From: a virus
Length of the DNA: 64,000 nucleotides
Reading direction: 5' to 3' (one strand)
Virus record (IMG/VR): IMGVR_UViG_3300025000_002059
Location: 1-64,000 of that record
In this document: positions 10,691-64,000 of the stretch, piece by piece
Numbering within the stretch: the first letter of the stretch is position 1
How the letters are laid out: every line of letters starts with the position of its first letter
Notes under the pieces: model-generated
What the model was told of the DNA's origin: nothing
What the model saw: only the letters and a program-made list of their open reading frames with translations
The model's database searches: none
Position numbers and translations under genes: made by a program

Positions 10691-11077
10691 ATGGGATTCG
10701 AGAAAGAACAACGTCCATTTATGAAAACTTATGATGAGAGATATGCTATACAAGCTATTACTAGTACCGGAACAGCTATCACTGGTTATGGAATAACAAC
10801 TTTATCATCCACAAAAGCAGGAGCATTGACATTTAGGATTGATCCACCACTTTATGCAGGAGTGGATAAGACAGTTATTTGCTTAGTTCAATCTGGTTCA
10901 TCTTCTTCATATAAGATTATCCCAAATACAACTACAGTTCAGTTTGGCTCAACTGTATCCAGTACAGGAAGATCATTCAATTTAAGTGATGCAGGTGAAG
11001 TTGTCCAGTTTGTTGCAATTTCAGCAACCAAATACTTTGTCGTTTCCAATATAGGTTCGACATTCGGATCTAGTTAA
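10691..11077 (+). CDS. Ser/Thr-rich virion protein (possible head fibre)
   Basis: GGAGG RBS, beta-rich Ser/Thr composition, head module position. Confidence 0.5.
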   Translation: MGFEKEQRPFMKTYDERYAIQAITSTGTAITGYGITTLSSTKAGALTFRIDPPLYAGVDKTVICLVQSGSSSSYKIIPNTTTVQFGSTVSSTGRSFNLSDAGEVVQFVAISATKYFVVSNIGSTFGSS

Positions 11078-11120
11078 AAAAAAGATATAAGGGAGGACAG
11101 GGGCAATCCTTTGGGGGGAG

Positions 11121-12035
11121 ATGCCCACTAAATTTATGAATGAAATAGAAACAAATAACCCAATAGAAGTTAAAAATGTTGCCATTGAGCCACCATTAGA
11201 TTTAGAAAAAGTGACAAAGGTTAAAGATGATGTTCTGGAATTTAAACGATATTCAGATAGCGTTATGATCTTAGGATTTGCACCAGATAGTCTTAAATGG
11301 GCACCATTGGACGCTAAAAATATTGATATTTGGGGACTTAATGAACTTTATATGGATAAGCCAAAAATTGCGATTCGTGCGACTGCATGGTTTCAGCTCC
11401 ATGGATATGAGCCACCAACAGTGAGAGATGTTAATCAAGTTAGAAATTTATCATTCCTAAAATGCCCAGTGCTTATGTGGAGAAAACATCCCAATATCCA
11501 AAATTCAATTGAATATCCATTACAAGAAATCATGGAAGAATTTGACATCTATGGCGAAGACATGGCACTGGATCAACCTGATATTAGGCAGAGAGTTTAT
11601 TTCACCAATACGATTTCATGGATGATTGCACTAGCCATTAAAATGGGATACAAGGACATTCAAATTTATGGAGTCAATATGGCACAAGATCAGGAGTTCC
11701 AGCATCAAAGACCAAGCTGCGAATTTTTCCTTGGCTGGGCAAGAGGGAAAGGTATCAAGATATATAAGCCGCCAGTATCGGATTTGCTTTTATCGCCTTT
11801 CCTTTATGGATACGATGATGCAACGGCGTACATGCAGAAACTAGAAGCGCGAAGAAAGGAACTAATAGAGCGGGTCGAGAATACGCGCAGGCAAAGGATA
11901 GGCATGCAAGAGCAGGCTAATCAACAATTACAAGCAGAACAAAATCTATTAGGGGCACTTCATGATGTTGAATACATTATGAGACTTGGAAATCCTGTAA
12001 AGCCGGATAAGTTTTCTAAGCCAGCGAAAGGATGA
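11121..12035 (+). CDS. Sialyltransferase/MAF-fold-like glycosyltransferase candidate with C-terminal coiled coil
   Basis: VMILGFAP, IWGLN and TISWMIALAIKMGYKDIQIYGVNM resemble the GT42/GT29/Maf 'A..lGyk.I.l.G.D' motif. Confidence 0.5.
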   Translation: MPTKFMNEIETNNPIEVKNVAIEPPLDLEKVTKVKDDVLEFKRYSDSVMILGFAPDSLKWAPLDAKNIDIWGLNELYMDKPKIAIRATAWFQLHGYEPPTVRDVNQVRNLSFLKCPVLMWRKHPNIQNSIEYPLQEIMEEFDIYGEDMALDQPDIRQRVYFTNTISWMIALAIKMGYKDIQIYGVNMAQDQEFQHQRPSCEFFLGWARGKGIKIYKPPVSDLLLSPFLYGYDDATAYMQKLEARRKELIERVENTRRQRIGMQEQANQQLQAEQNLLGALHDVEYIMRLGNPVKPDKFSKPAKG

Positions 12036-13547: not shown

Positions 13548-13964
13548 TTGTTATTAGACGAAGTCGCAAGACACCTTCAAGATGATTCAGTCGGGACAAT
13601 CGGAGTAAATATATTTAAGTCTTACTCACCAAATGCACCGGATACGACTCTTACCGTTTATGAAACAGGAGGTTTTCGACCGCAGGATACATTTGGATCG
13701 ACATGCGAAGTGGCGTGGGAAAATCCTTCGATTCAAATAGTATCAAGATCGACGGATTATGAGACTGCTAGAAGGACAGCGGAGAATGCCTACCGATCAC
13801 TTATAAGTGTTACAAATGAGACGTTAAAAGCTTCAAGTTCTGATGCCGGAAGTTTTTATTTGAGAATTTGGGCGGTACAGTCTCCATTTCGATTAGGCGT
13901 TGATGAAAATGAACGAAATCTGGTAGCCTGCAATTTTGATGTCATGAAAACTTTATCGACATAG
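13548..13964 (+). CDS. Tail terminator (minor capsid-like)
   Basis: VYETGG, PSIQIVSR and QSPFRLGVDENER motifs; TTG start after GGAGG. Confidence 0.75.
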   Translation: MLLDEVARHLQDDSVGTIGVNIFKSYSPNAPDTTLTVYETGGFRPQDTFGSTCEVAWENPSIQIVSRSTDYETARRTAENAYRSLISVTNETLKASSSDAGSFYLRIWAVQSPFRLGVDENERNLVACNFDVMKTLST

Positions 13965-14708: not shown

Positions 14709-15122
14709 TTGGCCGTACATGGAAAGTCAGCGGGGTTTTCAATTACAGATACTGGAGGAACACCAAGATTATTGAATTGTTGGCTTACGAGTGTTTCATT
14801 CCCAAAAACTGCGGATACCGTAGAGGTATCAAATTTTTGTAGTTCTGCAAAAGAGTATGTTGCTGGTCTAAGGGATGCAACTATTTCAATTGAGGGTATA
14901 TGGGCAACGACACCGGACGCATATTTAAGTGGAATCCTTGGCACGTCAGCAGCCTTTGTTTATTATCCGGGGACCACAGCGCCAGTTGCAGGAAAATATG
15001 CGAAATATACTGGTGTGTGTTTTGAGACAAGTTATGAGGTTCCAACGGCCATTGATGCTGCCGCAACCTTTACGGCTGAATTTCAAGTAACTGGAACTGT
15101 TACAAGATCAACCGCAGCCTAA
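14709..15122 (+). CDS. Major tail tube protein
   Basis: TADTVEV..KEYVAGLRDATISIEG and FTAEFQVTG; precedes tail chaperone. Confidence 0.75.
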   Translation: MAVHGKSAGFSITDTGGTPRLLNCWLTSVSFPKTADTVEVSNFCSSAKEYVAGLRDATISIEGIWATTPDAYLSGILGTSAAFVYYPGTTAPVAGKYAKYTGVCFETSYEVPTAIDAAATFTAEFQVTGTVTRSTAA

Positions 15123-43311: not shown

Positions 43312-44367
43312 ATGGCTAGGAAAAAGAATGAAGAAGAAGTCACCCTAACCAATCAGGAAATGATTCAAAAAGAAGAGCGCCATAGAAAAGATTTAGAAAA
43401 TAAACTAAAGGCATCGGAAGCATCAGCGGAAGATCAGAAACAATTTACTCCCTTGGTCAAACTTACTAAGGATTTAAGAAGCGCAAGCCGGACATTGAAT
43501 CCACAAGAAGCCCGGTATCTAGTGGACAGGTACTACCAAATCCAACAATACCGGACCAGCGCCAAGAATCAGATTAGAGCATCGGAAAGCGAAGAACCAA
43601 ATGAAGTTATTGTCTGGTTTGCAGAGAACTTTGAGGAACTGGAGAAGAACATAAAAAAGGCGCTGGATGCTTATACGAGTAGTCATCCGGTCGGAGCTTG
43701 GGCCAAATCGGTGATCGGCGTAGGTCCGACATTCGCAGCCGGGCTTCTAGCGCACATTGATGCGAAGAAAGCACCAACAGCCGGAGCCGTGTGGAGTTAC
43801 GCAGGATATAATCCAAGTGTTGAATGGTTAAAAGGTCAGAAGCGTCCATGGAATGCTGATTTAAAAAAACTATGTTATCTCATAGGTGAATCATTTGTAA
43901 AGGTTTCCAATAATCCTAAAGATATCTATGGTAAATTATATCGCCAAAGAAAAGATCAGGAGATAGCGAAGAATATAGCGGGAGAATTTGCGGAACAAGC
44001 AATATCAAAGCTGGAGAAATTCAAGATAGGTAAAGATACTGATGCTTACATATGGTATGCAGGATGTCTGACTGAAGATAAAGCCAGAGCAATTCTTCTG
44101 GGTGAAAAATCCGGATCAGCCAAAAGTCTAGCGGGAGAAAAGGATTCTGGGATTCGTATGCTTCCACCAGCACATATCAACGAGCGGTCCAAGCGATATG
44201 CTGTTAAAATATTCCTAGCCCATTTTCATGAGGTCTTATTTGAATATGAATTTGGGACCAAGCCACCAAATCCATATGCTATCTCAATCCTGGGACATGC
44301 ACATAAGCTGGAAGTTCCAAACTATGAAGTATTTAAAAAAGCGATGGAAGAAGATCCGTCACTATAG
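43312..44367 (+). CDS. TasA-like Nop-domain RNA-binding protein (IS110 C-terminal-related; no RuvC or HNH domain)
   Basis: Coiled coil, then SVIGVGP..AAGLLA.I, AVWSYAGY, WN..LK, YGKLY..RK and H...RSKRYAVKIFL; no DEDD domain; TIGR-like array begins at its stop codon. Confidence 0.8.
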   Translation: MARKKNEEEVTLTNQEMIQKEERHRKDLENKLKASEASAEDQKQFTPLVKLTKDLRSASRTLNPQEARYLVDRYYQIQQYRTSAKNQIRASESEEPNEVIVWFAENFEELEKNIKKALDAYTSSHPVGAWAKSVIGVGPTFAAGLLAHIDAKKAPTAGAVWSYAGYNPSVEWLKGQKRPWNADLKKLCYLIGESFVKVSNNPKDIYGKLYRQRKDQEIAKNIAGEFAEQAISKLEKFKIGKDTDAYIWYAGCLTEDKARAILLGEKSGSAKSLAGEKDSGIRMLPPAHINERSKRYAVKIFLAHFHEVLFEYEFGTKPPNPYAISILGHAHKLEVPNYEVFKKAMEEDPSL

Positions 44368-47454: not shown

Positions 47455-47672
47455 CCAGCACATGAGAAAATCCAGAGATCGTGAGCGAATCAATTGATGA
47501 AAAAAGCAACATTACTCCGGAGTGAACCGATTGAAATGATGATCCATTGACCAAGAGTGAGCCAATATCTATGAGCCACCCAATTTAAAGTAGCGAGCCA
47601 TCCCAAAGGATTTTTCAATTCCACGGAAGCGAGCCATTATAAGGCGATATTTCAGTCCACGGGAGCGATCCA
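47453..47672 (+). ncRNA. TIGR-like array, block 3 (about 6 units)
   Basis: Starts at the TAG of the upstream ORF; same repeats. Confidence 0.8.
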
Positions 47673-49480: not shown

Positions 49481-50023
49481 ATGAATGTTCAACCAATTAG
49501 AGATATTTCCAAAATAGAAGAATTAAAAAATGAACTCCTTAAGATCAGTTACCGAGATTATATGATTTTCTCATTTGGAATAAATACTGGATTAAGAATA
49601 AGTGATATCTTGAAGTTAAAAGTAAATGATATTAAGGGCAAAAGCCATGTTTCTATCAAGGAACAAAAAACGGGCAAAACAAAAAAGTTTAAAATACAAA
49701 GTCAATTTAAACCGGAAGTTGATAGGTACATACATGGAATGAAAATGACTAATTATTTATTTAGAAGTAGAAAAGGAGTAAATAAACCAATTAGTAGGAT
49801 TCAGTATTATAGGGTGTTAAGGAACGCTGCTGCGCCAATTGGGATTACAGAAATTGGAACACATACATTGAGAAAAACATTTGGATATTTTCATTATAAG
49901 AAAAACAAGGATGTTGCTATGCTGCAAGAAATATTTAATCATTCTGGACCGAGTGTGACCTTGAGATATATAGGGATAAACCAAGAGGAAATAGATGAGT
50001 CGATGGAAGGTATGTATTTATGA
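49481..50023 (+). CDS. Small tyrosine recombinase (catalytic domain only; resolvase-like)
   Basis: GINTGLRISD, EQKT.K, HTLRKTFGY and FNHS...TLRYIG give the R-K-H-R-H-Y set. Confidence 0.92.
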   Translation: MNVQPIRDISKIEELKNELLKISYRDYMIFSFGINTGLRISDILKLKVNDIKGKSHVSIKEQKTGKTKKFKIQSQFKPEVDRYIHGMKMTNYLFRSRKGVNKPISRIQYYRVLRNAAAPIGITEIGTHTLRKTFGYFHYKKNKDVAMLQEIFNHSGPSVTLRYIGINQEEIDESMEGMYL

Positions 50024-55957: not shown

Positions 55958-56073
55958 AATGTTGTCCCTCCCTTTTTATGTTTATTGTAATGCATAATTC
56001 AACATAAAGCAAGAGACAAAATAAGGTGCCCAGATGGCAAGTCTAGGCACCAGAGAAAAAGGAGGAATGAGCA

Positions 56074-56607
56074 ATGACTATAAAAGTACCACGGCAATGG
56101 CTTTGTATGGGGAAAACTCAGATATTGAATAATATGTTTGAGCCGATTCAAAATAGACCAGATGCGGTCCTAAAACCATATGGCGGGCTTTGGGTATCTC
56201 CATATGTACGGAATGGGAAATATAAAAGTCACTGGCACGAATGGTGTGAACAGAATAAATTTATGACAAGCACCGAAGGAACGATAATAAGACTCCAAGA
56301 TAATCTAAATGTCTATATAATAAATTCGCAAATTGACTTAATGAAACTTATAGAAGAAGTTGGAGAATATAATCCATTTCTGGGATTAGGCTTTGAGCCA
56401 TGGAAAACGATAGATTTTGAAGAAGCAGCCAAACGATATGATCTGATTTATTTAACAAGGCAAGGATTAAATTGCACTAGACTTCCATTTATGAATCAGA
56501 AATTTAACTTATATACATGGGATGTATCTTGCGCGATTTTATTTCATTTTGGGTGCATAAAAGGGCAATTCCCTACGAAGGTACGCGCTCCTGAAGAGTT
56601 AGACTAA
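56074..56607 (+). CDS. Hypothetical protein
   Basis: KPYGGLW.S...W.EWC..IDFE..YD.I.LT..WDV; AGGAGG RBS. Confidence 0.6.
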   Translation: MTIKVPRQWLCMGKTQILNNMFEPIQNRPDAVLKPYGGLWVSPYVRNGKYKSHWHEWCEQNKFMTSTEGTIIRLQDNLNVYIINSQIDLMKLIEEVGEYNPFLGLGFEPWKTIDFEEAAKRYDLIYLTRQGLNCTRLPFMNQKFNLYTWDVSCAILFHFGCIKGQFPTKVRAPEELD

Positions 56608-57625
56608 TCTCAAAATCACTTTCTTGGCCTTCAACAAATAATTCCAAGCGCGTGAAAAGAGATTTAATCTGGTCTGCTCTATAAATATTTTTAAGAGATA
56701 TTCTGAGTAATTCAATTTCAGGTTTTTTGACTTCAACCAAAGTTAATTGACTTGGAGGAATTTCTTCTTGATCCATCTTATCAACTACTTCCTCTTTTTT
56801 CACTATTGCATTTTCATTGCTTGGTGGAACTAGGGGAACCACTTTCTTTACACGTTCCTTGTATTTACGTTTAGGAGGTGTAGTTTCTGAATTAGCAGCA
56901 GCACCTTGGCCTTCAGCAGAGTCAGCAGCTGCTTTATCATTATCCCTTTTCGTCTGTGCTTGATTCAGTCTATTGTCTCTAAAATTACGCAATACATCTA
57001 AAGCATCATCACCAACTAAAATTTGCTTTCCTTTCCGGGCAACTTTAAAATTCCATGATAGTTCTGATAATTGAGCGGGAGCACAATCAAGACCTTTGAG
57101 TATTTCAGTCGTTGTATGAAGTCTCCTTAATTCAGCGTAGATCTTTTGACCTTCTTTATATTCAATAGCGTTGAGTTCGGAGACTTTTATCCATTCTCCA
57201 TATTGTATCCTTTTCATCCAATCCAAATTAAAAATACAAGATAATTCTAATATTTGCTCTAAAGAACAGTCTAATGCATTTTGTAATTCAACTATGTCAT
57301 ATATTTTCCTGAGTTCATTATAAACTTGAGCACCATCTTGAATAGGTAATTCTTTAAGTTCATCAATCGTAATTTGTTCTCTACTTTTTACCTTCTCCAT
57401 TAATTCCAACAATTTCATCTCCCTTAGAGTTGTGATAAAACAAGGACCAGCACCCATAATTAATCGTCTTTGAAATTTATCAGGTTCCTGTTCGGATGGC
57501 ATTTTGACGGATTCATGTTTACGGAGCCGGGCGGCCCTACCGTGAATACCATTTCCAGTCTTTTTCTTTTCCCTGACATCCTGATTAAAAATCCATTCAA
57601 CATCTTCGTTATAGATCCCAATCAC
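56573..57625 (-). CDS. Hypothetical protein with duplicated helical domain
   Basis: G.Q/K.Y.ELR.....E....LDC occurs twice. Confidence 0.55.
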   Translation of the reverse strand: MIGIYNEDVEWIFNQDVREKKKTGNGIHGRAARLRKHESVKMPSEQEPDKFQRRLIMGAGPCFITTLREMKLLELMEKVKSREQITIDELKELPIQDGAQVYNELRKIYDIVELQNALDCSLEQILELSCIFNLDWMKRIQYGEWIKVSELNAIEYKEGQKIYAELRRLHTTTEILKGLDCAPAQLSELSWNFKVARKGKQILVGDDALDVLRNFRDNRLNQAQTKRDNDKAAADSAEGQGAAANSETTPPKRKYKERVKKVVPLVPPSNENAIVKKEEVVDKMDQEEIPPSQLTLVEVKKPEIELLRISLKNIYRADQIKSLFTRLELFVEGQESDFEISLTLQERVPS

Positions 57626-57782
57626 ATCCTGTCAAATTCGACATTTCATTTCTTACATTTTAAATATACTTCAATTTATAGACCATGTCCACATTTTGTA
57701 TATTTCATAATATGACAAATTATTTTGTTTTATTTTTATGCTATACTTGGGACAAGTTTATTTATATTTGAGGTGGTTATGA

Positions 57783-57989
57783 ATGGCTTTGACACTTTGG
57801 TCCGGCAGAGGAACATGGGAAGGCTGGAAAATACGGAAGCAATATCAAGGCTGCAAATTTGGAGAGTCCGTCCTTGTGGATCCCGATGGAGTGCCATACA
57901 GTCCCAGCGATATACTAGCGAGCAGAAATTCTGCAAATCTTTCTGAAAAAGAGAAAATTAATAAAAGCAATAAATCGATAAAGGAATAA
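57783..57989 (+). CDS. DUF3653-like small phage protein
   Basis: G.WEGWKI...LVDPDG..YSP.DI; GAGG RBS. Confidence 0.45.
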   Translation: MALTLWSGRGTWEGWKIRKQYQGCKFGESVLVDPDGVPYSPSDILASRNSANLSEKEKINKSNKSIKE

Positions 57990-58525
57990 ATCCATAAATC
58001 CATATAAGAATATATCGATACATCCATAAAGGAATATTTGCTGAAGATTCTATTTAATAGACAGAATGAAAGAATTGGATTTTGTTTATAAGTTTAGGAT
58101 TTTATGTAAATATTCCATTTTTTAGTGATTGCGTATCGATATCCATATATCAATATATCCATATATCCATACGGAGCATAATTATCGTAAGAATCAATTC
58201 CTGATCGCGACGAGTAGCCTAACATTTTCTGTCAAATTGTCTAAGAGTGTATTCCTATCCATATATCAATACATCCATATATCAATACAAGAGGGACTTA
58301 TGGACCAAATATGTAATTTAATGGATTCTTTCAAATTGTAGGCAAACAGAATATTCTCAAATCTATACATCAATAAATCCATATTTCCATAAATCAATAT
58401 ATCGATAAATCAATACAGACCATTTTCGTGAGATCACGAAAATGATAAAAATATAACCATATAAGTTATAAACGGCAATTATAACTCATACGGTTATATT
58501 TTCGATTTTATGGATATTTATGGAA
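57963..58525. repeat. Clusters of tandem 8-bp repeats (TA[A/T/C]ATC[C/G/A]A), candidate parS centromere
   Basis: e.g. TATCGATATCCATATATCAATATATCCATATATCCATA at about 58133-58170; similar at 57970-58030, 58255-58290 and 58362-58415. Confidence 0.55.
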
Positions 58526-58709
58526 ATTATCAGGGGTAATAATTAGAACATCGCTGGCAGACTTCCTCATCAAAATTTTCCCGGTAACAGAATTTATCTT
58601 GGTTATATCGACAAACGAGAAAAAATTCTTTTCCAGTTAAGCAGAGTGGGGATCCGCAGCCAAGCGGAAAATCATCGCACCCATCGCACATTTCATTTTC
58701 ACATCCCTA

Positions 58710-58718
58710 TGCTATAAT
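58710..58718 (+). promoter_or_regulatory. Extended -10 promoter for array block 5
   Basis: TGCTATAAT 20 nt upstream of the first repeat. Confidence 0.6.
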
Positions 58719-59403
58719 AATTACATAGGACAAGTATAAGCCATGAACTGCGATTAAATCAATTATTGTAAGCGAGCCAAGAATAGAGATTTTACAGAAT
58801 TTTGAGCGAGTCAACTAGGTAGATTTTTTCAAATGTCCAAAGCGAACCAAAGCGCTTGAGAGCGCCAAAATTGGCAAGTGAACCATCAGTAGCAATAGTG
58901 CCAAACTATCAGAGTGAGCCAAAGTATTTGAGTTAAAATCATAAAAAGGTAAGTGAGTCATCGAACCAGATTATAAACATTGAAGAATAGCGAACCATTT
59001 TTGATTAAGAGAGTGAGTCAAAGTTTCCGATCGTACCTAAGTAAGGGAGCGAGTCCAAAGGTTTTTCAGTGTACCAGAAAGAGGGAGCGAGTCATACCAA
59101 ACAGAAAAAAGAACGAACCACGAACATAGACTTATTCATTTTACGAGAGTGAGCTAATAATGCCGATAGCAACAAAAACAGTGAACGAGCCAAGAATACT
59201 GAGAGTACCATATTTCGAGAGCGAGCCAGTAAGATGGGTATTTCCAAAAAAGAGAAGCGAGCCAAGAACTCTGATATCCCAGACCAAGCAAGCGAGTCAA
59301 GGTTTCCGACCATACCCAAACGTAAGGGATCGAGTCAAGGTTTCCGAGTGCACCGAAATTAGGGATCGAGACATGATAGCTGATTTAATCGTAAATAATG
59401 ATC

Positions 59404-59436
59404 GTTTCAATCCACGCACCAGAAATGAGGTGCGAC
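59404..59436 (-). CRISPR. Solitary type I-C-like CRISPR repeat (not an array)
   Basis: Minus strand GTCGCACCTCATTTCTGGTGCGTGGATTGAAAC; stem CGCACC/GGTGCG; ATTGAAAC end. Confidence 0.75.
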
Positions 59437-59839
59437 AATAAATATAAGTGAGCCAGCTGCATTGAGATTACCAATGTAGAGAAGCGAACCAACGAATGTG
59501 ATTAGTTTACAATTGAAGAGTGAACCACACGATAAGATGTCACCGTATGTTTGGAGTGAGCCAAAGAATTAAAAAAACATTATATGCAAGCGAACCAAAA
59601 ACCTTAGACAATATCAAACCCCAAGAGTGAGTCAAGCTTTCCGAGAGGTCCAGAACGGATGAACGAATCATGTTTCGTGAGAGCACCAGAAACATGGAGT
59701 GAGCCAAGAACACTGAGATACCAATTGCGAGAGAGCGAGCCAATAACTACGATCGATCACTGAAAAGAAGCGAACCAGTGTTGCTGGATTTGAGCAAAGT
59801 CTCTGAGTGAGTCATGGAGACAGGATAAGATCCAAATAT

Positions 59840-59874
59840 GTCATGACTTTCTATTAGTCGTGTGGGATTGAAAC
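59840..59874 (+). CRISPR. Solitary CRISPR-like repeat (not an array)
   Basis: GTCATGACTTTCTATTAGTCGTGTGGGATTGAAAC; stem CATGACT/AGTCGTG; ATTGAAAC end. Confidence 0.65.
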
Positions 59875-61283
59875 ATAGCTGCTAAACGAGCCAAAATATA
59901 GAATAGCAACATTAATAGTGGAGCGAACCATGGCGAATGATAATGACAATTTCCATTGAGTGAACCATTAGGAATGAGAGAACCAGTTAAATGAGTGAAC
60001 CATGTATCGTGAAAAATTTCAAGCGTTACGAGTGAGCCAACAGAGTTAATCATTACAATTGTTCAGAGCGAATCATTAAACTTGATTGTATCAGAGGTTA
60101 GAAGTGAATCAATGGGACGGAGAGTACCACAAACCATTAGTGAGCCATTCAATCGGAGAGCACCGTAAAGAACGAATCATAAGCGGCGAAAGAATCAGAA
60201 CCTCGAAGTGAACCATGTATTGTGATATTTCATAATCTGTGAAGTGAGCCATCATTAGGGATTGTTTCAATTATTAGGAGTGAACCACTTTTTGTGAGAA
60301 ACACAGCGATATAAGGGTGAGCCAAGAACACCGACAGTCAACAAAGCCACAAAGCGAACCAATGTTGGAGAGAGCACCGTGCCATTCGAGTGAACCGATG
60401 TCGCACCATTTTTAAACAGAGCGAGCCAATGACGATGGAGAGCACCATGATCACGGAGCGAACCACCATTAGGGATAGTAACATATTTTTGGAGTGAGCC
60501 GAGGATACTGACATTTAAACCAGATGGAAAGAGTGAGCCAAAGTATCCGAATACAACAACCTTCTAGAGCGAGTCACCCCACAAGAGCACACCCATGTCC
60601 GTTAAGCGATCCATCAAGGCATAGAGCACCATCAAGCATGAGTGAATCGACATTCGTGAGATACCCAATACTTGTGAGTGAGCCAGCATATCTGAATATT
60701 TCAATAGTCGTGAGTGAGCCACTGCCGCAAGATAATACCATGTCCATAGAGCGATCCACTACGCAAGATAGCACCACAACTGTAGAGTGAACCATCGGGG
60801 AGAATTAATCATCGGTTAGAAGTGAGTCATTAAACTTGATAGCACCATATCCGCAAATCGAGCCAATCATGCTGAATATTTCAATGAGCCAGAGTGATCC
60901 AATTATTTAGATCGAATCAATAAATCTGAGTGACCAAAAATGAACAAAGAAGTCTTACAATATGGCAACATATGTGATAATGTATGGATAAGCCAACGCT
61001 GCTGGCGAACTTGACTAGAGTACCAGATGCCAGCAAAACGAGTCGACAATGATGAGTGACCAACAATAATGAGCGTAAAAATTGAACAAAAAAATGACCT
61101 TCGCGGAGTTTGCACCTCCCGAAAGTCGTGGCTAAAGACCAAACTCTTTAGACTTGAAATTTAAATCTAAGGACGGAACCCTTAGACTTAAGTACTTAAT
61201 TTGGATTAAGTATAACAAAGGATACTCAACGAATCAAGGGGGACAAGGGTAGTATCATTTGTAATATTTTCAAATAAAAGTAA

Positions 61284-61320
61284 AGTCGGGTCAGTATCTT
61301 TAGCTGGCCCGGCTTTTTTT
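61284..61320 (+). terminator. Rho-independent terminator
   Basis: AGTCGGGTCAG...CTGGCCCGGCTTTTTTT. Confidence 0.65.
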
Positions 61321-61434
61321 GTTTCCCAAAAATTACAAGGTGAAAGAATTGGAGGGACAATAGTTTTCTATCTATCGAGCGTCCGTCAGATTGTATATAA
61401 TTTAGTTACTCACCTAAAAAATGGGGGGAGAGTC

Positions 61435-61683
61435 ATGGAGGTTTCAGTAAGAGCCAAAGAAATATATAAATTTATCGAAAATTTTAATGGCCACCCAATT
61501 TTTATAGACATCATGACCATCGATCTGGGAGATAGGGGGACGGTTAGGTTTGCATTGTGTGAATTAATAGATGTTGGATCCGTAAAACCTGTAAGGGCTA
61601 AAAATAAATTTGATAATATTTACCAAGTCGAGTATCACATTATCAATAACAATGATCCAACAAGTGAATCATTCTGGAAATAA
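61435..61683 (+). CDS. Hypothetical protein (possible winged HTH)
   Basis: Intact ORF with RBS and upstream TATAAT. Confidence 0.45.
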   Translation: MEVSVRAKEIYKFIENFNGHPIFIDIMTIDLGDRGTVRFALCELIDVGSVKPVRAKNKFDNIYQVEYHIINNNDPTSESFWK

Positions 61684-61701
61684 ATATGGGGAGGGGAATT
61701 T

Positions 61702-62043
61702 ATGATTAATGAATTGGAATTACTTTCAAAGAAAGAATTTTTAGAATTGGATATCGAAGATTTTAAATCATTATGGAGGGAACTAAAGGGTGAGATCTTG
61801 GATAAGAGGGACTTATATCAAAGATGCGATCCAGAGAAGTATGAAAGAGAATTGCATATTCTCCAATCCGTATTAAAGGCAATGGATCTAGCTGTGTCAG
61901 TTAAGATAACTGAAAGAAGAATAAAGGATAAAGTTTGCCAGTTTTGCAGAAATACAGAACTTGACACCAGAGGATATGGTACCTTGTGTACAAATTGTTT
62001 TAATGAGTATGAAGAGAGAATGGGCAGGAGGATTGTAAAATGA
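61702..62043 (+). CDS. Hypothetical protein with C-terminal zinc finger
   Basis: CQFC...LCTNC. Confidence 0.55.
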   Translation: MINELELLSKKEFLELDIEDFKSLWRELKGEILDKRDLYQRCDPEKYERELHILQSVLKAMDLAVSVKITERRIKDKVCQFCRNTELDTRGYGTLCTNCFNEYEERMGRRIVK

Positions 62044-62870
62044 ATGATGTCACTTCAACATTTCGACCAGCAGTATTTCCGGCAGACATAATGTATGACG
62101 AAAATCTTACCTCAAGTCAGAGACTAATACTGATTGTTTTATTCACTTACACGAACGCACATACTAATACAGCTTTTCCAAGTTATCAAACGATAGCCGA
62201 ACGGTCTGGATTTGAAAGGAGGACATGTATAAAATTAGTCGATGAATTAATAACTAAGGGATACATCGAAAAGCAAGAAAATTACACAAAAACAAAAGGT
62301 GGAAAACCTAATCAGACATCAAATTTATACACGCTACACTTTAAGGAGAGACAAGTAGGTAGTGATTTTAAATCACTAGGGGGTAGTGATTTAAAATCAC
62401 TAGGGGTAGTGAACGACGATCACCGGGGTAGTGATTTAAAATCACCCAAACTATCCATAGGAACTATCCATTGTGATCTTAATAATAATGATGAGGAAAA
62501 AATCGAAAACGAAGACTTTAAAAAATCGGTTCATCTCTGGGAAAATATCATGGGTAATGCAATTTCAGGAGTCGAAAATGATTATATCGACGAATGGATA
62601 TCACAATTTAATATGCCATTCGAAATGGTGAAGGAAGCAGTTGATCGCATGATTGCGTTGAATATAAGACCAAGGAATATCAGATATGTCGATTCAATAA
62701 CAAGAGGATGGCATAAGTCCGGGATCAAAACATTACAAGCGGCAAAAGAGGAAGTTCTTGATCGTGAAGCTAGTAAATTAAAAAAGAGACAAGGGAATAA
62801 GCCATTAAAACAGGGAGAGCAGAAGCCAGTAGAGCCATCTAGCTCAAAATACGATAAGTTTTACCTTTAA
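62040..62870 (+). CDS. Phage replication initiator (HTH plus DnaD/DnaB_2 domain)
   Basis: AFPSYQTIAE..G..R.T, SNLY, and C-terminal YVDSI..GW...GIKT. Confidence 0.88.
   Translation: MNDVTSTFRPAVFPADIMYDENLTSSQRLILIVLFTYTNAHTNTAFPSYQTIAERSGFERRTCIKLVDELITKGYIEKQENYTKTKGGKPNQTSNLYTLHFKERQVGSDFKSLGGSDLKSLGVVNDDHRGSDLKSPKLSIGTIHCDLNNNDEEKIENEDFKKSVHLWENIMGNAISGVENDYIDEWISQFNMPFEMVKEAVDRMIALNIRPRNIRYVDSITRGWHKSGIKTLQAAKEEVLDREASKLKKRQGNKPLKQGEQKPVEPSSSKYDKFYL
62358..62447. repeat. Palindromic iterons inside the initiator gene (lytic origin)
   Basis: GGTAGTGATTT(T/A)AAATCAC three times plus one degenerate copy. Confidence 0.8.
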
Positions 62871-62890
62871 ACGAAGGGCCGTGATTAGCA

Positions 62891-63661
62891 TTGACTAACG
62901 GTTTTGAACGAATCATTGAGAACTTAAGACTAAAGCATGAAGCATTTAAGGCAAGCAATACACAGCCCATGGAGCCGATAAACTACGAGTGCTCGATTTG
63001 TGAGGACCGGGAAATCGTTTTGATCGAGCAGGAAGATGGTTCAGTTTCAGCACGAAACTGTCAATGCAAAGCACAGAAGATCCAGCGACGAATGTTCAAA
63101 GCATCGGGACTGACCGAAGAACAAGCTTTGATGACGATAGATGACTATAACGTTTCACCAGATACCATGAAGATGTACCAGATGACGAAAAATTATTTAT
63201 GCGGACAATCATGGCGGGAAGGCAAAGGATTTGCACTGGTCGGAAGTGTGGGAGCAGGCAAGACGATGCTGGCACAGATCATCGCAAGCGAGATCATGCG
63301 CGACATGAAGACCGTGATCTTTATCCCAACGACAAGCCTGATGGCTGAACTTTTGGCAGCCCAATTTTCAAATGACAAATCAGAATTTGAGCAGCGTATA
63401 GACAAGTTAATCAAAGCTGATGTTGTTATTTTTGACGATATAGGAAAAGAGAAACCTACGGAATGGGTCCAGAATCAATATTTTAGAATCATCGACGGTC
63501 GCTACAACAACCGGAGAGCAACCGGATATACATCGAATTATGATTTTGATCGATTAGCAGATCGGTTTTCTGAATTTGGGGATGCGATCATATCCCGGAT
63601 CATAGCGATGACGCGAGATTATGTAGTCAATGTTAAGGCCAAGGATTACAGATTGAAATAA
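62891..63661 (+). CDS. dnaC: DnaC/IstB-like helicase loader ATPase
   Basis: CxxC..CxC zinc site, GSVGAGKT, IFDDIGKE and TSN...SRI. Confidence 0.9.
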   Translation: MTNGFERIIENLRLKHEAFKASNTQPMEPINYECSICEDREIVLIEQEDGSVSARNCQCKAQKIQRRMFKASGLTEEQALMTIDDYNVSPDTMKMYQMTKNYLCGQSWREGKGFALVGSVGAGKTMLAQIIASEIMRDMKTVIFIPTTSLMAELLAAQFSNDKSEFEQRIDKLIKADVVIFDDIGKEKPTEWVQNQYFRIIDGRYNNRRATGYTSNYDFDRLADRFSEFGDAIISRIIAMTRDYVVNVKAKDYRLK

Positions 63662-64000
63662 GGGAGCGGATCACATGTCAGAAATTGAACAAAAAAAAGC
63701 CAGCACACACTAATAATGTACTGACAAAGGGAAGAAAAACGACAGACCACGATACCATCAACAATATTCAGTCATATATGGGATTCCGCAATGCCATATA
63801 GACAAGCATAATGATACCAATAATTTGAAATTTTGTCCAACTAAAAATATTCCATTTGTAGTAATATAAAGGTAGGACAAAATAATAAATTCTAAGGGCA
63901 CATATTAACGGTACAAGCGTTCAGGATTAATGATTAGGGGGAAAGGTAATGAGGACATTCATTGAGAACAAAGAGCGGGCAGACATGGATATTATTGTCG

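Follow-up and report, generated by a model that had tools for sequence, protein, structure and literature searches.

A solitary type I-C-like CRISPR repeat, a putative RNA anti-CRISPR, within an orphan TIGR array of a metagenomic phage

Described systems and the phage locus

Phages are known to use solitary CRISPR repeats as anti-CRISPRs. In the available text of PMC10651486 (Camara-Wilpert et al. 2023), viral solitary repeat units are reported to act as RNA anti-CRISPRs (Racrs), and one of type I-C, RacrIC1, is shown to work. Traits of Racrs given there are a promoter immediately upstream, expression as a small RNA and a match to the subtype of the host; they often lie next to acr genes, an arrangement which is not obligatory. 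The 33-nt element discussed here (SRU1) resembles RacrIC1 and its kin in being a single look-alike of a type I-C repeat, non-coding and carried by a virus without cas genes. It resembles Racrs further in that no partial repeat lies within 100 nt and in that its hairpin and nuclease-recognition part are conserved. Unlike the Racrs of that text, its setting is the guide array of another RNA-guided system, TIGR, and neither the neighbourhood of an acr gene nor an ordinary intergenic spacer. The element is also antisense to the surrounding transcription unit, without a clear promoter of its own, and has companions of different sequence, namely a second hairpin in the same phage (SRU2) and two repeats in a sister phage (G002). 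Its activity, as judged from sequence, is putative.

Type I-C repeats are defined by a 7-bp stem with a 5-nt loop, extended by overhangs of 2 nt at the 5' end and 11 nt at the 3' end (PMC8524198, available text). According to the same source, Cas5c cuts at the base of the 3' stem, its recognition is centred on the following UGG and the tail, and neither the loop nor the 5' overhang is critical for BhaCas5c, changes to the loop being tolerated. SRU1 shares with these repeats the 2-nt GU overhang, the G-C-rich stem and a length of 33 nt; its 6-bp stem and 8-nt loop differ from the 7 bp and 5 nt of the definition. Unlike a type I-C array, it is a lone copy and lacks both spacers and a neighbouring cas operon. 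Virus-borne mini-CRISPR arrays, reportedly described by Medvedeva and co-workers in 2019, are said to take part in inter-viral conflict. SRU1 is comparable to these in that it is a viral repeat without cas genes and precedes sequence which also occurs in related viruses. Unlike them, it has no second repeat and is followed by ordinary array sequence, and the PAM is present at one of four sibling junctions.

TIGR arrays belong to a recently described guide-RNA system. The array housing SRU1 agrees with the dual-repeat TIGR-Tas systems (Faure et al. 2025, PMC12045711, available text) in its 36-nt unit and in the presence of a Nop-domain Tas gene in the genome; SRU1, unlike a TIGR-Tas unit, replaces one and is not one. 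Neither CRISPR repeats nor anti-CRISPRs are mentioned in the available text of PMC12045711 or in the TIGRFinder preprint (10.64898/2026.09.09.750476), and Racr is likewise unmentioned in the preprint. A review pairing tigRNA with anti-CRISPR exists. The type of element is known; its placement as a CRISPR-repeat cassette in a TIGR array has no precedent in the literature searched.

The window, by which we mean the whole stretch of 64,000 nt analysed, covers positions 1-64000 of an IMG/VR virus record (G000 below), which is 87,959 bp long and bounded by direct terminal repeats. The runs holding the phage are labelled as groundwater and sediment metagenomes. A first-pass annotation of the sequence had claimed that no cas genes are present. 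A six-frame search of the whole record for three families, Cas5d (PF09704), Cas1 (PF01867) and Cas7 (PF05107), bore this out, with the control genomes matched. As SRU1 is also a single copy, it is therefore not part of a CRISPR locus. Pfam and PHROGs, consulted without a dedicated Acr library, returned no anti-CRISPR annotation among the 8-10 neighbouring ORFs.

The main features of the TIGR system are as follows.

43312..44367, plus strand: tas gene, 351 aa, Nop/IS110-like (weak PF02371 match, tblastn, phrog_4285 at 5e-48)
58710..58718, plus strand: extended -10 (TGCTATAAT), probably the promoter of array 2, whose first unit follows after about 50 nt; not among the sites given by the promoter scan, which demands a -35
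58772..60940, plus strand: orphan TIGR array 2, home of SRU1 and SRU2, about 55 units with a 36-nt period
61282..61316, plus strand: terminator-like hairpin of 14 pairs followed by a T-run, after array 2

Plus-strand TIGR arrays occupy 44.4-48.2 kb, 58.77-60.94 kb and 71.9-72.2 kb. The tas gene, the sole Tas candidate found, is directly followed by array 1 and lies 14 kb from array 2. Its tblastn match falls in a region of Salicola phage CGphi29, which a published abstract names as the source of TasH, and its product has 3286 homologues. One of these, P0023 (581 aa), is 97% identical over 54% of the query and carries Hint/intein-type domains (PF07591, PF13403, PF14890); it is possibly an intein-containing Tas. 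The units of array 2 follow the order edge repeat GAGYGARCCA, spacer A, loop repeat, spacer B, which is the unit anatomy of PMC12045711 (available text). One guide unit, with spacer A AGGTTTCCG, loop GAGTGYACC and spacer B GAAATTAGG, recurs at 59013-59060, 59292-59373 and 59627-59660 and is kept in all five related phages, exactly in G001 and G002 and as a variant in G003 and G004; its conservation and copy number suggest a conserved target. TIGR guides aimed at type I-C repeats were considered and rejected, as the similarities (for example around 47613-47660) involved a single half with one mismatch and no matching second half-spacer, and are attributed to chance. Just upstream of array 2, 8-nt-phased AT-rich repeats of the ATCCATAT / ATCAATAT type, with a 24-nt inverted repeat, occupy 58000-58420 and 58448-58502, and DnaD-like and IstB/DnaC-like genes stand at 62040-63661. 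These iteron-like runs and genes together look like a replication origin.

The repeat and its class

Within array 2, SRU1 can be divided into the following parts.

59404..59436, minus strand (reading from 59436 to 59404): SRU1, solitary type I-C-like CRISPR repeat of 33 nt, from its sequence, uniqueness and covariance model
59436-59435, minus strand: GU overhang
59434-59429, minus strand: 5' stem arm, CGCACC
59428-59421, minus strand: 8-nt loop
59420-59415, minus strand: 3' stem arm, GGTGCG
between 59415 and 59414, minus strand: predicted Cas5c/d cut, by analogy with the available text of PMC8524198
59414-59404, minus strand: 11-nt 3' tail, UGGAUUGAAAC

The letters at this position agree exactly with the 33-mer reported by the first-pass annotation. 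As RNA, the element forms a 6-bp stem capped by an 8-nt loop and flanked by a 2-nt GU overhang on one side and an 11-nt single-stranded tail on the other, with an energy of -10.7 kcal/mol on the minus strand which was equalled in 4 of 200 shuffles; the plus-strand RNA forms a hairpin of its own (-10.5 kcal/mol). At up to three mismatches the repeat occurs once in the window, and any match at all appeared in 0 of 100 dinucleotide shuffles. Its 3' 17-mer, at up to two mismatches, occurs once in the whole 87,959-bp record. The absence of a second copy at spacer distance was likewise upheld: SRU1 scores 15-18 of 33 in local alignment against the 100 nt on each side (45-55% of the repeat length), which is the background of the array (182 array windows, mean 16.8, maximum 20), and neither a full nor a partial repeat lies within 100 nt. 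The proposal that SRU1 is a diverged TIGR unit was rejected, since its similarity also reaches only array background. The description of the repeat as solitary holds for its sequence but not for its kind, as SRU2, a different CRISPR-like hairpin with the same 3' 10-mer, is situated 404 nt away on the opposite strand. The location, inside the array in a region without an ORF of at least 100 aa, is non-coding. SRU1 is, in sum, solitary, non-coding and found in a phage in which no cas genes were detected, as are the viral solitary repeat units defined in the available text of PMC10651486. An Rfam search of 56000-64000 gave nine weak matches (E up to 10), none of them CRISPR-like.

The resemblance to type I-C repeats proposed at first pass is borne out by a genome search in which the SRU1 stem and tail were fixed and the loop was left free. 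This pattern matched at least 120 genome stretches, mostly true arrays, with periods mostly of 65-67 nt. The repeats come from Bacillota, Bacteroidota, Pseudomonadota, Spirochaetota and Chloroflexota, and also from an archaeon. We took the dominant repeat of each locus with at least three copies, dropping loci with fewer, and obtained 62 distinct natural repeats, on whose alignment a covariance model (R1) was built. R1 scores SRU1 at 40.7 bits (E 1.3e-5 over 404,221 bases, both strands). The model is a narrow one, since the search pattern had already dictated the stems. The nearest of the 62 natural repeats, from a Duncaniella MAG, is three edits from SRU1, which is inside the natural spread (median 4 edits between repeats, maximum 9).

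The differences are localised. All seven stem pairs are formed in 62 of the 62 natural repeats, and the seventh, loop-proximal pair covaries (CG 46, UA 13, UG 3). In SRU1 this pair is U-U, because of which its stem is 6 bp and its loop 8 nt, and the loop has one extra base. Changes are confined to the loop end of the hairpin: the stem base, the UGG and the 11-nt tail are identical to those of natural arrays, and both overhangs, 2 nt at the 5' end and 11 nt at the 3' end, are exactly as in the type I-C definition. A Cas5d-family gene (PF09704) was found in all five tested genomes with such arrays (one match each, E 1e-30 to 1e-42), and in at least two of the five the match lies on the array contig within about 5 kb, as judged by contig numbering. 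SRU1 genuinely belongs to this widespread class of type I-C repeats. In IMG/VR, 55 stretches hold this repeat class, 39 of them with one or two copies, and none of the 55 has the repeat among TIGR units.

Identifying a host from the repeat, as the first-pass annotation had suggested, did not succeed, since the class is spread over many phyla, even reaching an archaeon, and no exact copy was found in the matches listed. The exact 33-mer is absent from JGI metagenome contigs, from the 55 IMG/VR stretches of the class and from the genome matches listed (at least 120). When 175 loci were compared by BLAST with the five phage genomes, no spacer matched over its full length. The strongest partial similarity came from an Anaerovorax odorimutans MAG: in a non-I-C array there, the spacer at L112:1768-1790 agrees with positions 72521-72543 of the phage, outside the window, at 23 of 23 nt, beyond which the two sequences part. 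A lone I-C-type repeat is also present on this Anaerovorax contig. The spacer match is a weak host hint. Used as a spacer query, the 30-mer downstream of SRU1 had 0 matches in IMG/VR.

Since array 2 has its -10 (58710) and its terminator (61282) on the plus strand, SRU1 is antisense to the array. A consensus promoter scan found no promoter on the minus strand directly upstream of SRU1. The weak -10-like TATATT ends 4 nt before it, with no -35 of at least 4/6 matches, and about 170 nt separate SRU1 from the closest promoter-like site on the minus strand. The region shows no excess of promoter-like sites (19 against 14.9 +/- 4.0 expected).

Such an orientation would suit an anti-repeat RNA, an improbable reading in which plus-strand SRU1, carried in the pre-tigRNA, would pair with host pre-crRNA repeats at their 3' stem arm and 5' handle, over 17 contiguous nt for the class analysed here, masking the Cas5c/d site or making an RNase III substrate. 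Both promoter-like -10 and terminator would serve it, a separate promoter would be unnecessary, and the plus-strand RNA is a perfect complement to the invariant 8-nt and 17-nt blocks of all 62 natural repeats. However, this RNA, at -10.5 kcal/mol, and its target each fold into their own hairpins, and the sense orientation of three of the four repeats described below would go unexplained. We know of no natural anti-CRISPR of this kind, which also counts against it.

Insertion site and companion repeats

Relatives of the phage were recovered through homologues of a neighbouring 350-aa protein (56573-57625, minus strand; among its closest relatives are P0001, at 98% identity, P0004, P0005 and P0013), which led to eight related IMG/VR loci, and four near-complete genomes, G001-G004, were compared with G000. 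Neither the DnaD-like neighbour as a query, which added no relatives, nor a search with a conserved-unit pattern, which returned only the sister phages G001 and G002, extended this set. Two features adjoin SRU1.

59364..59403, plus strand: last TIGR unit ahead of the insert, also kept in G001 and G002; SRU1 truncates its closing edge repeat after GATC
59437..59447, minus strand: 11 AT-rich nt beside SRU1, with the -10-like TATATT at 59446-59441, missing at the site in the sister phages

Aligned across G000, G001 and G002, the site has conserved flanks and a different unit in each phage. The first-pass claim that the repeat interrupts one TIGR unit can be refined: the event is a replacement, of about 34 nt by 44 nt relative to the two sister phages. 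These 44 nt are the reverse-complemented repeat plus the 11 AT-rich nt, and in exchange an edge repeat lost its 3' half and the unit its interior. The resulting interval between edge cores is 82 nt, without a loop repeat and preceded by the truncated edge repeat, unlike a TIGR unit of about 36 nt with edge, spacer A, loop and spacer B. The sequence of SRU1 does not vary among contigs of two studies, one represented by two groundwater samples and the other by a sediment sample, while nearby array positions do. A co-occurring variant of lower depth (11.6 against 28) has an apparently ordinary unit at the site. As three of the five related genomes also have no such repeat, the element is evidently dispensable.

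The companion repeats are listed below.

59840..59874, plus strand: SRU2, a different CRISPR-like hairpin, sense to the array, with a GU overhang, a 7-bp stem (one G-U), a 7-nt loop and a 12-nt tail
G002, 13849-13880, sense to the homologous array: first I-C-like repeat (R1 35.2 bits, E 1.9e-4)
G002, 15070-15102, sense to the homologous array: second I-C-like repeat (R1 17.4 bits, E 1.1)

SRU2, together with five AT-rich nt before it, separates the loop repeat from spacer B in a unit which is uninterrupted in G001, a site that a plain MAFFT alignment did not resolve. It folds at -7.2 kcal/mol on the plus strand against -3.2 on the minus, and its G-U pair forms on one strand only. R1 recognises only the tail (14.1 bits, E 5.3). 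Both arms together were found in 0 IMG/VR stretches, and the 3' 18-mer in five metagenome stretches, as single chance matches outside any array. The first G002 repeat has full edge repeats directly on its flanks and has lost two stem pairs; in the second, one stem pair is flipped from A-U to U-A. Neither R1 nor the architecture, taken as GU, a stem abutting the tail and a 3-10-nt loop, detected I-C-like repeats in G001, G003 or G004. The tail motif has 11 occurrences in the five related genomes, of which four, all in array 2 of two genomes, have the full architecture; 0 of 200 Markov simulations of the G000 genome produced it. The stems of these four repeats differ and all pair, at distances of 7-15 edits from one another, and three of the four are sense, SRU1 being antisense.

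Among 80 more distant Tas loci (1.19 Mb), neither model nor architecture revealed an I-C-like repeat. The only two R1 hits there (E 6 and 8.4) were rejected, as they are TIGR edge repeats of L225. In this locus, from another Tas phage, the TIGR array at 10860-11280 has GATTGAAACA as its edge repeat, a sequence nearly the same as the 3' tail of type I CRISPR repeats. Variant TIGR repeats, GATTGAACCA for example, are also present in the arrays of the phages compared here and resemble the CRISPR tail motif. This likeness of the tail to GATTGAACCA and GATTGAAACA means that microhomology may ease capture, and it weakens the case for SRU2, whose membership of the I-C family is weak. It leaves the case for SRU1 intact because its 5' half and stem match natural I-C repeats.

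Three further observations concern the arrays themselves. A short loop-less unit at 59087-59112 sits exactly at the slot of the first I-C-like repeat of G002, and may be the scar of a lost cassette. The tails at 59404-59413 and 59865-59874, 450 nt apart, are perfectly complementary over 10 bp and no further in the plus-strand transcript, because SRU1 and SRU2 are inverted relative to one another. Homologous arrays also contain non-unit inserts of 220-392 nt (G001:4620-4851, G002:13508-13728, G004:8075-8466), which hold structured RNA or small ORFs.

A functionless scar, left undecayed by illegitimate recombination of a fast-turning TIGR array with a host CRISPR array or with the repeat cassette of another phage, would account for part of this picture, and we consider it unlikely. 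The slot is variable, with a different unit between conserved flanks in all three aligned phages; SRU1 lacks the loop-proximal pair, and the first G002 repeat lacks two pairs. SRU1 is on the non-transcribed strand without a consensus promoter, SRU1-type repeats are missing from three of the five relatives and from the co-occurring variant, and the resemblance of the tail to TIGR repeats could have favoured capture through microhomology. However, the GU overhang, the stem abutting UGG and the tail are kept in all four repeats of the two phages, and none of the four is truncated. The substitutions spare exactly those parts read by Cas5c, one stem pair being compensated, and SRU1 is identical in samples of two studies where neighbouring units vary.

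The sequence following the repeats bears on another reading, in which a cut by host Cas5c/d would turn the array sequence downstream into a crRNA-like guide against sibling phages, whose uninterrupted unit carries the protospacer; the carrier would be protected because its repeat replaces the PAM. After each repeat there is ordinary array sequence common to the siblings, and G001 has TTC, named as an I-C target-flanking motif (PMC8406640, available text), directly before the matching sequence at the SRU2 site. However, the sibling junction for SRU1 reads CTC (minus strand), not TTC, and those for the two G002 repeats read AAA and TTT. One TTC in four sites is near chance because TTC stands at the end of the common loop repeat TTTCA. 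Guide and sibling also match over only 17-20 nt before diverging, and no downstream repeat is present for a 3' hairpin. We regard the formation of such a one-guide unit as rather implausible.

The mixed orientations observed would be accounted for if the repeat acted as DNA, for instance as a recombination site with host arrays or as a decoy target for Cas1-Cas2, aided by its AT-rich, leader-like flank; for such a role orientation would be irrelevant, and a short tyrosine-recombinase-like ORF is present at 49481-50023. However, what is conserved is an RNA architecture, as seen in stem covariation and in the one-strand G-U pair of SRU2, and not a DNA sequence. As the four repeats are 7-15 edits apart, they would share no single partner array. 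A role at the DNA level is, in our estimation, highly improbable.

A putative decoy and its implications

Our preferred reading is that SRU1 is a captured type I-C repeat kept as a solitary repeat unit, most likely an RNA anti-CRISPR of the Racr kind, and we hold it with roughly even confidence on the basis of sequence comparison. According to this proposal, Cas5, Cas7 and Cas8 of a presumed type I-C host would assemble on the 11-nt handle and the meaningless RNA downstream of it, and RNA derived from SRU1 would titrate out Cascade subunits at the expense of real crRNAs. Repeat cassettes may find a tolerant landing site in the orphan TIGR array; for the sense copies (SRU2 and the two of G002) it could provide a ready-made transcription and processing unit. 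The preservation in SRU1 of the parts read by Cas5c, together with recurrence under structural constraint, favours a decoy over a scar. Several findings temper this view, and our confidence goes no further because the repeat is antisense, has no consensus promoter, has lost a stem pair and is missing in most relatives. Firstly, SRU1 opposes the transcription of the array and has no consensus promoter directly upstream. Secondly, exact SRU1 was in no array searched, among the matches listed, and no known acr gene was recognised nearby. The lost seventh pair fits neutral decay as well as it fits a tolerated change.

A broader extension of the decoy reading, which we put forward tentatively and consider doubtful as a whole, is that the orphan TIGR array serves this phage lineage as a swap-in scaffold for anti-CRISPR RNAs. 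CRISPR-repeat cassettes would be exchanged like guide units, and the sense copies would be part of the pre-tigRNA transcript, from which tigRNA processing or host Cas5c/d would release them. A set of differing I-C mimics could then cover several host variants, and antisense SRU1 might add an anti-repeat RNA which masks host pre-crRNA. If this were true, one RNA-guided system would be carrying decoys against another.

Unit-sized mimics of CRISPR repeats in the TIGR array of two related phages, at different slots, link the two systems and show that TIGR units are exchanged as whole cassettes. If the decoy function is true, natural I-C Racr variants with shortened stems would exist. SRU1 offers a testable example of a guide array carrying other small RNAs.
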